From Eledone cirrhosa (taxonomy: Eukaryota): DNA of 64,000 nt. Where the stretch lies: NCBI GenBank assembly GCA_964016885.1, contig OZ024741.1, positions 248,186,001 through 248,250,000 of the forward strand. Reading direction: 5' to 3'. Both the position numbers and the translations under genes were made by a program. Each line of letters begins with the position of its first letter. Within the stretch, counting starts at the first letter, position 1. Below, piece after piece: positions 1 through 7,100 of the stretch. Under the pieces are notes generated by a model. That model was not told the origin of the DNA, ran no database searches, and saw only the letters and a program-made list of their open reading frames with translations.

Positions 1-22
1 CTCCGCCTGATTTTTTAAAAAA

Positions 23-236
23 AATTATCTCCCCTTGGACGGCTGGAAATTATCTCCCCTTGAATGGCTGGAAATTATCTCCCCTTGGACGGCTGGAAAT
101 TATCTCCCCTTGGACGGCTGGAAATTATCTCCCCTTGGACGGCTAGAAATTACCTCTCCTTGGACGGCTGGAAATTATCTCCCTTTGGACGGCTGGAAAT
201 TATCTCCCCTTGGACGGCTGGAAATTATTTCCCCTT
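23..236 (+). repeat. Example run of 8 type-A monomers (25 bp, AAATTATCTCCCCTTGGACGGCTGG)
   Basis: Read directly: exact 25-bp period with point variants (GAATGG, CTAG-AAATTACCTCTCC, CCCTTTGG). Confidence 0.97.
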
Positions 237-2387
237 GATTTTTTTTACAAATTATCTCCCCCTGATTTTTTTTACAAATCTCCCCCTAATTTAAAAAAAA
301 ATTATCTCCCCTTCGCTGGCTGGAAATTATCTCCCTTTGGACGGCTGGAAATTATAGCTGCTTGTAGGGCTGGAAATTATCTTCCCTTGGACGGCTGGAA
401 ATTATCTCCCCTTGATTTTTTTTACATATTATCTCCCCCTGATTTTTTTTTACGAATTATCTCCCCGATTTTTTTTACAAATTATCTTCCCCTGATTTTT
501 TTTTACAAATTATCTCCGCCTGATTTTTTTAAAAAAATTATCTCCCCTTGGACGGCTGGAAATTATCTCCCCTTGAATGGCTGGAAATTATCTCCCCTTG
601 GACGGCTGGAAATTATCTCCCCTTGAACGGCTGGAAATTATCTCCCCTTCGCTGGCTGGAAATTATCTCCCTTTGGACGGCTGGAAATTATAGCTGCTTG
701 TAGGGCTGGAAATTATCTCCCCTTGGACGGCTGGAAATTATCTCCCCTTGATTTGTTTTACTAATTATCTCCCCCTGATTCTTTTTTACAAATTATCTCC
801 GCCTGATTTTTTTTTTAAAATTATCTCCCCTTGGCTGGATGGAAATTTTCTCCCCTTGGACGGCTGGAAATTATCTCCCCTTTATGTCTTCTACAAATTA
901 TCTACCCCTGATTTTTTTTTTACAAATTATCTCTTCCTGATTTTTTTTACAAATATCTCCCCTTGGCTGGCTGGAAATTATCTCCCCTTGGCTGGCTAAA
1001 ATTATCTCCCCTTGGACGGCTGGAAATTATCTCCCCTTGGACGCCTAGAAATTACCTCTACTTGGACAGCTGTAAATTTTCTCCCCTTGGACGGCTGGAA
1101 ATTATCTCGCCTTGGACGGCTGGAAATTATCTCCCCTTGATTTTGTATACAAATTATCTCCCCCTGATTTTTTTTTACAAATTATCTGCCCCTGATTATT
1201 TTTTAACAAATTAGCTCCGCCTGATTTTTTTAAAAAATTATCTCCCCTTGAACGGCTAGAAATTACCTCTCCTTGGACGGCTGAAAATTATCTTCCCTTG
1301 GACGGCTGGAAATTATCTCCCCTTGATTTTTTAAAAATTATCTCCCTCTGATTTTTTTTACAAATTATCTCCCCCTGTTTTTTTTTACAAATTATTTCCC
1401 CCTGATTTTTTTACAAATTATCTCCGCCTGATTTTTTTAAATATTATCTTCCCTTGGCTGGCGGGAAATTATCTCCCCTTGGACGCCTGGAAATTATCTC
1501 CCCTTGGAAGGATAGAAATTATCTCCCCTTGGACGGCTGGAAATTATCTCCCCTTGCACTGCTGGAAATTATCTCCCTTTGGACGGCTGGAAATTATCTG
1601 CCCTTGATTTTGTTTTTACAAATTATCTTCCCCTGATTTTTTTTACAAATTATCTCCACCTGATTTTTTAAAAAATTATCTCTCCTTGGACGGCTGGAAA
1701 TTATCTCCCCTTGGCTGGAAATTATCTCCCCTTGGACGGCTAGAAATTATCTCCCCTTGGACGCTGGAAATTATAGCCCCTTGGAGGGCTGGAAATTATC
1801 TTCCCTTGGACGGCTGGAAATTATCTCCCCTTGCACTGCTGGAAATTATCTCCCCTTGCACGGCTGAAAATTATCTGCCCTTGATTTTGTTTTTACAAAT
1901 TATCTCCACCTGATTTTTTTTTAAATTATCTCCCCTTGGACGGCTAGAAATTATCTCTCTTTGGACGGCTGGAAATTATCTCCCCTTGATTTTTTTACAA
2001 ATTATCTCCCCCTGATTTTTTTTACAAATCTCCCAGTGATTTTTTAAAAAAAATTATCTCCCCTTCGCTGGCTGGAAATTATCTCCCCTTGGACGCTGGA
2101 AATTATAGCCCCTTGGAGGGCTGGAAGTTATCTTCCCTTGGAGGGCTGGAAATTATCTTCCCTTGGACGGCTGGAAATTATCTCCCCTTGATTTTTTTTT
2201 ACAAATTATCTCCCCGTGATTTTTTTTTACAAATTATCTCCCCCTGATTTTTTTTTTACAAATTATCTCCGCCTGATTTTTTTTTAAAATTATCTCCCCT
2301 TGGACGGCTGGAAATTATCTCCCCTTGGACGGCTGGAAATTATCTCCCCTTGGACGGCTAGAAATTACCTCTCCTTGGACGGCTGAA

Positions 2388-3913
2388 AATTATCTCCCCT
2401 TGGACGGCTGGAAATTATCTCCCCTTGATTTTTTTACAAATTATCTCCCCCTGATTTTTTTTTTACAAATTATCTCCCCCTGATTTTTTTTACAAATTAT
2501 CTACCTATGATTTTTTTTTACAAATTATCTTCCGCTGATTTTTTTTACAAATTATCTCCCCCTGATTTTTTTTTACAAATTATCTCCCCCTGATTTTTTT
2601 ACAAATTATCTCCCCCTGATTTTTTTTACAATTTATCTCCGCCTGATTTTTTTAAATATTATCTTCCCTTGGCTGGCGGGAAATTATCTCCCCTTGGACG
2701 GCTGGAAATTATCTCCCCTTGGAAGGATGGAAATTATCTCCCCTTGGACGGCTGGAAATTATCTCCCCTTGCACGGCTGGAAATTATCTCCCCTTGGACG
2801 GCTAGAAATTACCTCTCCTTGCACGGCTGAAATTTATCTCCCCTTGGACGGCTGGAAATTATCTCCCCCTGATTTTTCTACAAATTATCTCCGTCTGATT
2901 TTTTTAAAAATTATCTTCCCTTGGCTGGCGGGAAATTATCTCCCCTTGGACGGCTGGAAATTATCTGCCCTTGATTTTGTTTTTACAAATTATCTCCCCC
3001 TGATTTTTTTACAAATTATCTCCACCTGATATTTTAAAAAATTATCTCCCCTTGGACGGCTGGAAATTATCTCCCCTTGGACGGCTGGAAATTATCTCCC
3101 CTTGGACGGCTAGAAATTATCTCTCTTTGGACGGCTGGAAATTATCTCCCCTTGGACGGCTGGAAATTATCTCCCCTTGATTTTTTTACAAATTATCTCC
3201 CCCTGATTTTTTTTTTACAAATTATCTCCCCCTGATTTTTTTTACAAATTATCTACCCCTGATTTTTTTTTACAAATTATCTTCCGCTGATTTTTTTACA
3301 AATTATCTCCCCCTGATTTTTTTTTACAAATTATCTCCCCCTGATTTTTTTACAAATTATCTCCCCCTGATTTTTTTTACAATTTATCTCCGCCTGATTT
3401 TTTTAAATATTATCTTCCCTTGGCTGGCGGGAAATTATCTCCCCTTGGACGGCTGGAAATTATCTCCCCTTGGAAGGATGGAAATTATCTCCCCTTGGAC
3501 GGCTGGAAATTATCTCCCCTTGCACGGCTGGAAATTATCTCCCCTTGGACGGCTAGAAATTACCTATCCTTGCACGGCTGAAATTTATCTCCCCTTGGAC
3601 GGCTGGAAATTATCTCCCCCTGATTTTTCTACAAATTATCTCCGTCTGATTTTTTTTAAAATTATCTTCCCTTGGCTGGCGGGAAATTATCTCCCCTTGG
3701 ACGGCTGGAAATTATCTGCCCTTTATTTTGTTTTTACAAATTATCTCCCCCTGATTTTTTTACAAATTATCTCCACCTGATATTTTAAAAAATTATCTCC
3801 CCTTGGACGGCTGGAAATTATCTCCCCTTGGACGGCTGGAAATTATCTCCCCTTGGACGGCTAGAAATTATCTCTCTTTGGACGGCTGGAAATTATCTCC
3901 CCTTGGACGGCTG
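2388..3913 (+). repeat. 751-bp tandem duplication (repeated as a 753-bp pair at ~13018-14545 and ~16318-17845)
   Basis: ORF pairs 2694/3445, 13325/14078 and 16625/17378. Shared rare variants CTTCCGCTG, CCGTCTG and TGATATTTTA. Confidence 0.9.
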
Positions 3914-3914
3914 C

Positions 3915-4185
3915 AAATTATCTCCCCTTGATTTTTTTTTACAAATTATCTCCCCCTGATTTTTTTTACAAATTATCTCCCCGTGATTTTTTTTTACAAA
4001 TTATCTCCCCCTGATTTTTTTACAAATTATCTCCCCCTGATTTTTGTTTACAAATTATCTCCCCCTGATTTTTTTTACAAATTATCTCCCCCTGATTTTT
4101 TTTTACAAATTATCTCCCCCTGATTTTTTTACAAATTATCTCCCCCTGATTTTTTTTACAATCTCCGCCTGATTTTTTTAAAAAT
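3915..4185 (+). repeat. Example run of ~10 type-B monomers (AAATTATCTCCCCCTGAT(n)AC), closed by a CCGCCTGA-T7A5 unit
   Basis: Read directly. The T-tract length varies from unit to unit. Confidence 0.95.
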
Positions 4186-7100
4186 TATCTTCCCTTGGCT
4201 GGCGGGAAATTATCTCCCCTTGGACGGCTGGAAATTATCTTCCCTTGCACGGCTGGAAATTATCTCCCCTTGGACAGCTGGAAATTATCGGCCCTTGATT
4301 TTGTTTTTACAAATTATCTCCCCCTGATTTTATTTTACAAATTATCGCCACCTGATTTTTTAAAAAATTATCTCCCCTTGGACGGCTGGAAATTATCTCC
4401 CCTTGGCTGGAAATTATCTTCCCTTGGACGGCTGGAAATTATCTCCCCTTGATTTTTTTTACAAATTATCTCCCCCTGATTTTTTTTACAAATTATCTGC
4501 CCCTGATTTTTTTTTACAAATTATCTCCGCCTGATTTTCTTTTTAAATTATCTCTCTTTTGACGGCTGGAAATTATCTCCCCTTGATTTTTTTTTACAAA
4601 TTATCTCCCCCTGATTTTTTTTTACAAATTATCTACCCCTGATTTTTTTTTACAAATTATCTCCCCCTGATTTTTTTTAGAAATTATCTCCCCCTGATTT
4701 TTTTTTTACAAATTATCTCCCCCTGATTTTTTTACAAATTATCTCCCCCTGATTTTTTTTTCAAATTATCTCCGCCTGATTTTTTTAAATATTAGCTTCC
4801 CTTGGCTGGCGGGAAATTATCTCCCCTTTGACGGCTGGAAATTATCTCCCCTTGCACTGCTGGAAATTATCTCCCCTTGGACGGCTGGAAATTATCTGGC
4901 CTTGATTTTGTTTTTACAAATTATCTTCCCCTGATTTTTTTTACAAATTATCTCCACCTGATTTTTTAAAAATTATCTCCCCTTGGACGGCTGGAAATTA
5001 TCTCCCCTTGGCTGGAAATTATCTCCCCTTGGACGGCTAGAAATTATCTCTCTTTGGACGGCTGGAAATTATCTCCCCTTGATTTTTTTTACAAATTATC
5101 TCCCCCTGATTTTTTTTTACAAATTATCTCCCCCTGATTTTTTAAAAAAAATTATCTCCCCTTGGACGGCTGGAAATTATCTCCCCTTGGACGGCTGGAA
5201 ATTATCTCTCCTTGGACGGCTAGAAATTACCTCTCCTTGGACGGCTGAAAATTATCTCCCCTTCGACGGCTGGAAATTATCTCCCCTTGATTTTTTTTAC
5301 AAATTATCTACCCCTGATTTTTTTTTACAAATTATCTCCCCCTGATTTTTTTTACAAATCATCTCCCCCTGATTTTTTTTACAAATTATCTCCCCCTGAT
5401 TTTTTTTACAAATTATATCCCCTTGGCTGGCTGGAAATTATCTCCCCTTGGAGGCTGGAATTTATCTCCCCTTTGACGGCTAGAAATTACCTCTCCTTGG
5501 ACGGCTGGAAATTATGTCTCCTTGGACGGCTGGAAATTATCTCCCCTTGGACGGCTGGAAATTATCTCCCCTTGCACGGCTGGAAATTATCTCCCCTTGG
5601 ACGGCTGGAAATTATCTCCCCTTGGCTGGAAATTATCTCCCCTTGGACGGCTAGAAATTATCTCTCTTTGGACGGCTGGAAATTATCTCCCCTTGATTTT
5701 TTTTACAAATTATCTCCCCCTGATTTTTTTTACAAATCTCCCAGTGATTTTTTAAAAAAATTATCTCCCCTTCGCTGGCTGGAAATTATCTCCCCTTGGA
5801 CGCTGGAAATTATAGCCCCTTGGAGGGCTGGAAGTTATCTTCCCTTGGAGGGCTGGAAATTATCTTCCCTTGGACGGCTGGAAATTATCTCCCCTTGATT
5901 TTTTTTACAAATTATCTCCCCCTGATTTTTTTTACAAATTATCTCCCCCTGATTTATTTTTTACAAATTATCTCCGCCTGATTTTTTTTTTAAATTATCT
6001 CCCCTTGGACGGCTGGAAATTATCTCCCCTTGGACGGCTGGAAATTATATCCCCTTGGACGGCTAGAAATTACCTCTCCTTGGACGGCTGAAAATTATCT
6101 CCCCTTGGACGGCTGAAAATTATCTCCCCTTGATTTTTTTTACAAATTATCTCCCCCTGATTTTTTTTTACAAATTATCTCCCCCTGATTTTTTTTTACA
6201 AATTATCTCCCCCTGATTTTTTTACAAATTATCTCCCCTTGGCTGGCTGGAAATTATCTCCCCTTGGAGGCTGGAATTTATCTCCCCTTGGAGGGCTGGA
6301 AATTATCTCCCCTTGGACGGCTAGAAATTACCTCTCCTTGGACGGCTGGAAATTATCTCCCCTTGAACGGCTGGAAATTATCTCCCCTTGGACGGCTAGA
6401 AATTATCTCTCTTTGGACGGCTGGAAATTATCTCCCCTTGCACGGCTGGAAATTATCTCCCCTTGGACGGCTGGAAATTATCTCCCCCTGATTTTTCTAC
6501 AAATTATCACCGTCTGATTTTTTTTAAAATTATCTTCCCTTGGCTGGCGGGAAATTATCTCCCCTTGGACGGCTGGAAATTATCTGCCCTTGATTTTGTT
6601 TTTACAAATTATCTCCCCCTGATTTTTTTACAAATTATCTCCACCTGATATTTTAAAAAATTATCTCCCCTTGGACGGCTGGAAATTATCTCCCCTTGGA
6701 CGTCTAGAAATTATCTCTCTTTGGACGGCTGGAAATTATCTCCCCTTGGACGGCTGCAAATTATCTCCCCTTGATTTTTTTTACAAATTATCTCCCCCTG
6801 ATTTTTTTTTACAAATTATCTCCCCCTGATTTTTTTTTACAAATTATCTACTCCTGATTTTTTTACAAATTATCTCCCCCTGATTTTTTTTACAAATTAT
6901 CTCCCTCTGATTTTTTTTACAAATTATCTCCCCCTGATTTTTTTTTACAAATTATCTCCTGATTTTTTTACAAATTATCTCCACCTGATTTTTTTTACAA
7001 TCTCCGCCTGATTTTTTTAAAAATTATCTTCCCTTGGCTGGCGGGAAATTATCTCCCCTTGGACGGCTGGAAATTATCTCCCCTTGGACGGCTGGAAATT

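Follow-up and report, generated by a model that had tools for sequence, protein, structure and literature searches.

The closest described case is the satellite pair TmSat1/TmSat2 of Tribolium madens, in which two related satellites are intermixed over megabases (PMC13081366). In the accessible text of that report, two distinct, conserved and side-specific transition zones of altered monomers are shared across contigs, and the number of monomers between these fixed transitions is variable (PMC13081366). Human MSY1 is built of blocks of variant short repeats, the lengths of which change while the block order is stable, and in-register misalignment has been proposed for it (PMC2599865). Chio1 and Chio2 of Chionographis japonica form megabase arrays of two short, related and intermingled monomers of 23 and 28 bp (PMC10264360). 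In the Meloidogyne satellites, different monomers with a common short motif form complex higher-order repeats (PMC3694981). The Eledone cirrhosa satellite described here resembles all four in these respects. It alternates runs of two classes of short unit, A and B, and special units stand where a B run passes into an A run.

Composition and distribution of the satellite

The window, i.e., the whole stretch of 64,000 bp that was analysed (C2:248,186,001-248,250,000 in a 3.0-Gb genome with contigs of 379-443 Mb), is a single tandem array from end to end (1-64000, + strand). This composite satellite belongs to an array of approximately 2.7 Mb on contig C2. Units were cut at the shared 13-bp head, giving 2,471 units, of which 1,335 have A tails, 891 have ordinary B tails, T(n)AC, and 245 have T(n)A(m) tails. 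The A unit is 25 bp long with a GC-rich tail, the B unit is approximately 27 bp long, and the 13-bp head is common to both.

Exact copies of three satellite motifs numbered 20,324, 210,627 and 171,721 genome-wide. The motif counts, scaled by the motif density in 348 kb of samples, gave an estimate of 16-19 Mb for the whole family, of which approximately 0.5 Mb was sampled and only about half was located. Arrays were found on six contigs: C1 (approximately 251.2-252.2 Mb and 279.2 Mb), C2 (+ strand, approximately 245.6-248.28 Mb; - strand, approximately 248.5-251.1 Mb), C3 (163.7-164.9 Mb), C4 (140, 205.5-205.9 and 247.4 Mb), C123 and C1499. The megabase arrays on C1-C4 sit at 37-65% along each contig. 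All sampled stretches carry their units on one strand only, and opposite orientation was seen only between the megabase arrays of C2. Higher-order periods exist above the monomer, the commonest spacings being 1.64, 3.3, 9.0, 12.2, 9.8 and 22 kb. The sequence has the long head-to-tail arrays, the high copy number at several loci and the multi-unit periods of a satellite. Dispersed short arrays with shared flanks, such as a tandem repeat carried by a mobile element would form, were also looked for: among the first 100 places listed, the first 251 Mb of C1 held one orphan array and one single match.

The neighbours of the arrays are other satellites and simple repeats. A separate satellite with 17% GC, also made of shuffled short sub-units, lies at C1:251.18 Mb and is followed by a LINE-like fragment (recognised by eye), an AT microsatellite, an assembly gap and then the array. 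Two related GC-rich satellites of approximately 200-230 bp lie upstream of the C2 array (C2:245.0 and 244.0 Mb). A degenerate (TAACCC)n tract, which we take to be an interstitial telomere repeat, was seen at C2:251.20 Mb, approximately 100 kb from the minus-strand array.

Rfam gave no match for window positions 1-6000. Public sequencing runs with part of the stretch gave 17 entries, with no RNA among those listed; three of the 17, from one sample that is perhaps the source, contain at least half of the words of the stretch, and the smaller shares in other organisms do not count as evidence. The literature search, which covered neither subscription journals nor repeat databases nor supplements, found no description of the satellite, and the core string returned five titles, all unrelated. 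The composite satellite is apparently undescribed.

Run-boundary markers and junction lineages

The initial annotation proposed that most B runs end in a terminator, a unit with a CCGCC or CCACC core and a T(n)A(m) tail, and that the first A unit often has a GCTGG-type tail. The unit list showed that all positions given for these features were correct. Units with a CCGCC or CCACC core begin at 512, 795, 1213, 1420, 1652, 1902 and 2265, and the cut unit at 1 has such a core too; GCTGG-type first A units start at 304, 823, 955, 1446 and 2056. In positions 1-2300, the T(n)A(m) tail closes 9 of 10 complete B runs, and a CCGCC or CCACC core is present in 7 of 10.

The features of this region, all on the + strand, illustrate the rule and its exceptions. 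The window opens with a cut last-B unit that has a CCGCC core and a T(n)A(m) tail (1-26). A junction of the short-head family follows at 278-328, where a T(n)A(m) unit with a plain core precedes a CGCTGG-type first A unit; a second short-head terminator, with a CCCAG core and again a CGCTGG-type first A unit, lies at 2028-2080. The junction at 512-564 is of the largest family, with a CCGCC terminator and then a standard A unit. CCGCC terminators are also found at 795-847 (with a GGATGG-type first A unit), 1213-1239, 1420-1470 (with an interrupted run of adenines and a GGCGGG-type first A unit) and 2265-2291, and CCACC terminators at 1652-1677 and 1902-1927. There are three exceptions, of which the first two are these: the B run at 873-954 passes into a GGCTGG-type first A unit without a terminator (929-979), and the first unit of a B run carries a T(n)A(m) tail at 1315-1339. 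The third is at 640-739, where a block of A units that normally starts a run (first-type A unit at 640) lies inside one, a mosaic that may have arisen by in-register exchange.

Over the whole window, the T(n)A(m) tail was present in 238 of 285 last B units and 7 of 844 inner ones, and the CCGCC or CCACC core in 179 of 285 and 18 of 844, respectively. The special unit at the end of most B runs was thus confirmed, with the tail a better marker than the core. The GCTGG-type tail marked 162 of 285 first A units and 11 of 1049 later ones. Approximately one-sixth of the B-to-A junctions in the window have no terminator at all. When each distinct three-unit context was counted once, the tail was found in 61/75 against 5/231 and the core in 48/75 against 3/231; these contexts still share descent, and p values from them overstate the evidence. 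The markers were not as frequent inside runs as at the B-to-A boundaries.

The core was also said to be C4TTG when either neighbour is A and C5TG mainly between two B tails, and this held as well: the C4TT core was found in 1046/1049 A-A, 245/285 A-B, 229/238 T-A and 47/47 b-A contexts, and in only 15/844 B-B contexts. A further 9 of the 238 T-A contexts carry a shortened core. This rule reflects phase: the A-type core goes with the A run, and such a run has n tails and n+1 cores.

The boundary rules hold in every array sampled, including those on the four large contigs. In seven further samples of arrays (C1, C2 and C4), 869 of 1,071 last B units but 38 of 4,356 inner ones had T(n)A(m) tails; these tails were present in 187 of 244 and 11 of 1,127 on C3, C123 and C1499, and in 105 of 137 and 3 of 474 in later samples, a tally that excludes two loci with sister-satellite sequence. 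Across samples, the terminator was absent from 17-23% of junctions. The last A units also have a variant of their own (82/1,263 against 4/3,417). Array-specific drift was observed, with longer B runs on C1 and C123 and a terminator-less family commoner on C3.

The 1,343 B-to-A junctions collapsed to 252 distinct strings and 89 clusters, and the large clusters occur on several contigs. Sorted by terminator and first A unit, the 1,296 complete modules fell mainly into seven families of 428, 297, 265, 183, 52, 34 and 21 members. The families of 183 and 34 modules have no terminator. The junctions trace to approximately seven old lineages common to several contigs, so that the junctions are inherited, as had been proposed. 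With so few shared families, the effective sample is a handful of old junctions.

The junction is not passed on as a single block. Terminator and first-A type occur in all four combinations (627, 432, 214 and 32), which means that even the junction itself recombines, and an old family of 183 among the 1,296 junctions lacks a terminator. Because all four marker combinations exist, clusters and a copying model took the place of a tree of the junction units. No evidence was found for the function that the name terminator suggests. A separate candidate, the origin of the CCACC and GGCTGG variants by CpG decay, was not supported, as the CpG in the most frequent A unit showed no excess of transitions (2 distinct contexts with C>T, 5 with G>A and 7 with C>A).

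The [B(n)-terminator-A(m)] module of approximately 150-450 bp proposed as the ancestral unit is meaningful as an old unit, with a median of 182 bp and 218 of 285 modules in that range, but it is not a fixed block, and module lengths range from 77 to 492 bp. The lengths of its two sub-arrays are nearly independent in four large families (rho 0.04-0.22 between B run and A run) but not in two small ones (0.75).

Breakpoints and the origin of the markers

In the copying model, each unit was explained from earlier sequence, and a breakpoint was called where both sides matched templates of at least 5 units. The model covered 13,132 units; the first 1,500 were dropped as burn-in, and sample edges were also dropped. 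The 164 breakpoints comprised 22 changes inside A runs, 38 inside B runs, 44 of module size and 60 that were non-local. The counts represent surviving events, and selection against head-only joins would look alike.

Joins of unlike classes through the head only made up 2 of the 164 breakpoints, and 6 of 197 under second settings, against 33.5% expected from random joins. In simulated data, the model recovered head-only joins at 81/240, 48/118, 95/245 and 39/123 (32-41%). The sequence shared at real breakpoints had a median of 42 bp and exceeded 30 bp in 99/164, while simulated joins shared a median of 12-13 bp and exceeded 30 bp in about 18%. Breakpoints sharing at most 17 bp numbered 25 of 164, and old head-only lineages exist. 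A chimeric unit near C4:140.08 Mb has a diagnostic A core start and a B-type end, with the crossover inside the C run.

According to the strict form of the initial proposal, there was one fixed module in which A and B runs slip independently and junctions are passed on intact. The breakpoints agree with it in part. Gains and losses within a single run account for 60 of the 164, 44 of these being single-unit, and in one family B runs vary from 2 to 17 units. The within-run mechanism is real but a minority of events. The other 104 breakpoints are module-sized or longer, and in another family 224 of 265 B runs have stayed at 3 units. A runs are ordered series of position-specific variants and often mosaics of different modules, many of them starting with the run of one family and ending with that of another. 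Diagnostic A variants are seldom doubled in tandem. A symbol-level parsimony sort of the A runs was too crude for event counts and was used descriptively. As the junction markers also recombine, we regard the strict form as improbable.

A sister satellite served as an internal outgroup. It is embedded in the main C1 array at C1:251.77-251.81 Mb, with further islands to 252.21 Mb, and all 60 copies of its left-junction motif lie at C1:251.77-252.21 Mb. Runs of 4-45 variant A units alternate in it with an AT-rich spacer of 113-374 bp made of pentamer repeats. It has its own first-tail marker, which opens 51 of 55 runs and recurs in only 2 of 947 inner units. The third tail base is C in 976 of 1,046 sister units; in the main satellite, it is C in 843 of 1,312 first A units and in 51 of 4,719 later ones. 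By parsimony, C would be the old state, kept at the run edge and replaced inside. Among five distinct sister/main junctions seen, four were in register within A units and one was head-only. A derivation of the B tail or terminator from the sister's AT-rich spacer was not supported, since 142 and 509 of 1,000 shuffles matched equally well.

An isolated pure array of 28 variant A units lies on the - strand at C1:231.58 Mb in non-satellite DNA and ends in the sister's right junction; it is probably a displaced piece. The same array end, cut inside a terminator and followed by an AT-rich degenerate repeat, occurs at C2:248.283 Mb (+) and C2:250.70 Mb (-).

We consider it likely that the run-boundary markers are neutral relics of one old A-run/B-run module, kept because duplication and deletion almost always match like with like (A-A, B-B). 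An older 25-bp A minisatellite would have been joined to a T-rich unit with the same head. The module may then have diversified into a few families, which would have been shuffled into higher-order repeats of 1.6-22 kb and then spread. No diagnostic site is more than approximately 20 bp from a class boundary, and interior versions would enter this zone only via a crossover in a short shared stretch. Because short homology is rarely used, boundary bases would be shielded; at such edges old states could persist, such as the C common to the first A unit and the sister, and new variants could freeze. Unequal crossover, gene conversion and break-induced copying are all candidates for the exchange. 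Smith-type models lead one to expect that edges diverge under unequal exchange.

When 40 bp of homology was required, a neutral toy simulation retained A and B together in 11 of 12 runs; of these 11, 9 kept the starting marker and 10 gained new edge-only markers. Under 24-bp and 12-bp rules, both classes were kept in only 6/12 and 5/12 runs. Edge-only markers arose under the 12-bp rule too, and the simulation therefore does not prove shielding. In a first simulation, in which the array was small and most events were short, one class disappeared from 14 of 18 runs. In these models, neutrality would suffice in part of the parameter space, with the shortness of the real runs lying outside its account.

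The junction units could instead be functional punctuation under selection, for example as small hairpins or protein sites at intervals of roughly one nucleosome within a (peri)centromeric domain. The position of the megabase arrays at 37-65% along C1-C4 and the median module of 182 bp would suit such a role, which has been proposed for the cassettes of T. madens (PMC13081366). The terminator tail is self-complementary, two families can lengthen the stem into the first A unit, and natural terminator/first-A pairs fold slightly better than permuted ones (p 0.04, 32 non-independent types). However, this permutation test counts one lineage several times. A check for dyad symmetry showed the junction hairpins to be weak and lineage-dependent, with folds of 0 to -8 kcal/mol and z of -1.41 and 0.07 for two junctions. 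The markers also differ by lineage and are missing at 17-23% of junctions, module lengths spread over 77-492 bp, and the neutral model yields similar markers. We therefore think selected punctuation unlikely. We give equally little weight to its fuller version, a selected code in which modules of about nucleosome size, a GC-richer run plus a T-tract run, each closed by a hairpin of constant length, would define centromeric chromatin, and head-only joins would be purged.

The sliding tail and comparison with known systems

The terminator tail is the most changeable site in the array. In collinear duplicates of at least 60 units, 33 of 325 terminator pairs had the T/A boundary at different places in tails of equal length, and 2 differed in length. 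In the same duplicates, the T-runs of B units differed in 33 of 1,362 pairs, and A units differed at 53 of 46,230 bases. The T/A boundary of the terminator thus slides at approximately 90 times the ordinary per-base rate. Where eight flanking units were identical, 33 of 110 terminator contexts varied; 36 of the steps, including 30 of a single base, preserved the length, and 5 altered it. The shift is sometimes at least 2 bases (tails such as that at window 512-539). Among tails with a short, interrupted run of adenines, 1 of 91 had moved.

A hot spot of A/T to T/A transversion at homopolymer boundaries has been reported in C. elegans (Konrad et al., bioRxiv 10.1101/529214), and for humans the increase relative to the A>T background is put at 6.1-fold (Carlson et al., bioRxiv 10.1101/108290). 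As far as these preprints describe it, the terminator tail is like this hot spot, with transversions where T and A runs meet. The human value has a different baseline; the terminator slides approximately 90-fold per base, in tens of thousands of copies and sometimes by moves of at least 2 bases.

This mutability might suggest recurrent breaks or nicks at the terminator that create B-to-A switches, in which case the marker would cause the junction. T(n)A(m) contains TTAAAA, a sequence that has been associated with nicking by endonuclease in the human genome (Carlson et al., bioRxiv 10.1101/108290). However, linked private variants are common to several contigs, a sign of descent, and 23 of 164 breakpoints touch a B-to-A boundary, below the approximately 32 expected from boundary frequency, with positions uncertain within the shared sequence. 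We consider such a cause very unlikely. An assembly or sequencing artefact is hardly credible: the satellite is homopolymer-rich and was studied as assembled sequence, but the same linked variants occur in many copies on six contigs and both strands, and the T/A shifts preserve total length, unlike indel errors.

A and B share only the 13-bp head, so each rearrangement records whether short or whole-unit homology was used (1-3% against approximately 34% expected), which makes the A/B satellite a natural assay for the homology needed in satellite turnover. The sister satellite is an internal outgroup by which edge units are seen to keep putative old states, and the T(n)A(m) tail, which changes fast and keeps its length, can serve to put very recent duplications in order. 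The satellite also calls for caution, as conserved satellite junctions, taken elsewhere as functional, can arise without selection.

Most likely, this is an ordinary satellite with an unusually legible history. The T. madens monomers are 225 and 704 bp long in kilobase arrays, whereas the units here are 25-27 bp in runs of mostly 1-17 units (PMC13081366). The T. madens cassettes contain inversions (macro-dyad), whereas all stretches sampled here run one way and no inversion was found in them (PMC13081366); we therefore do not class the satellite with these cassettes. The T. madens authors lean to function, whereas the breakpoint data here favour a neutral cause (PMC13081366). MSY1 is a single locus of approximately 75 repeats, not a multi-megabase array, and the accessible text on it describes no special junction units (PMC2599865). 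Chio1/Chio2 are centromeric by CENH3 ChIP, occur in mixed orientations and have no boundary rules in the accessible description, whereas the present account is drawn from sequence (PMC10264360). In the Meloidogyne satellites, as reported, the short motif is obligatory at junctions, whereas the 13-bp head alone is rarely used here, in 2/164 and 6/197 breakpoints against the 33.5% expected (PMC3694981).
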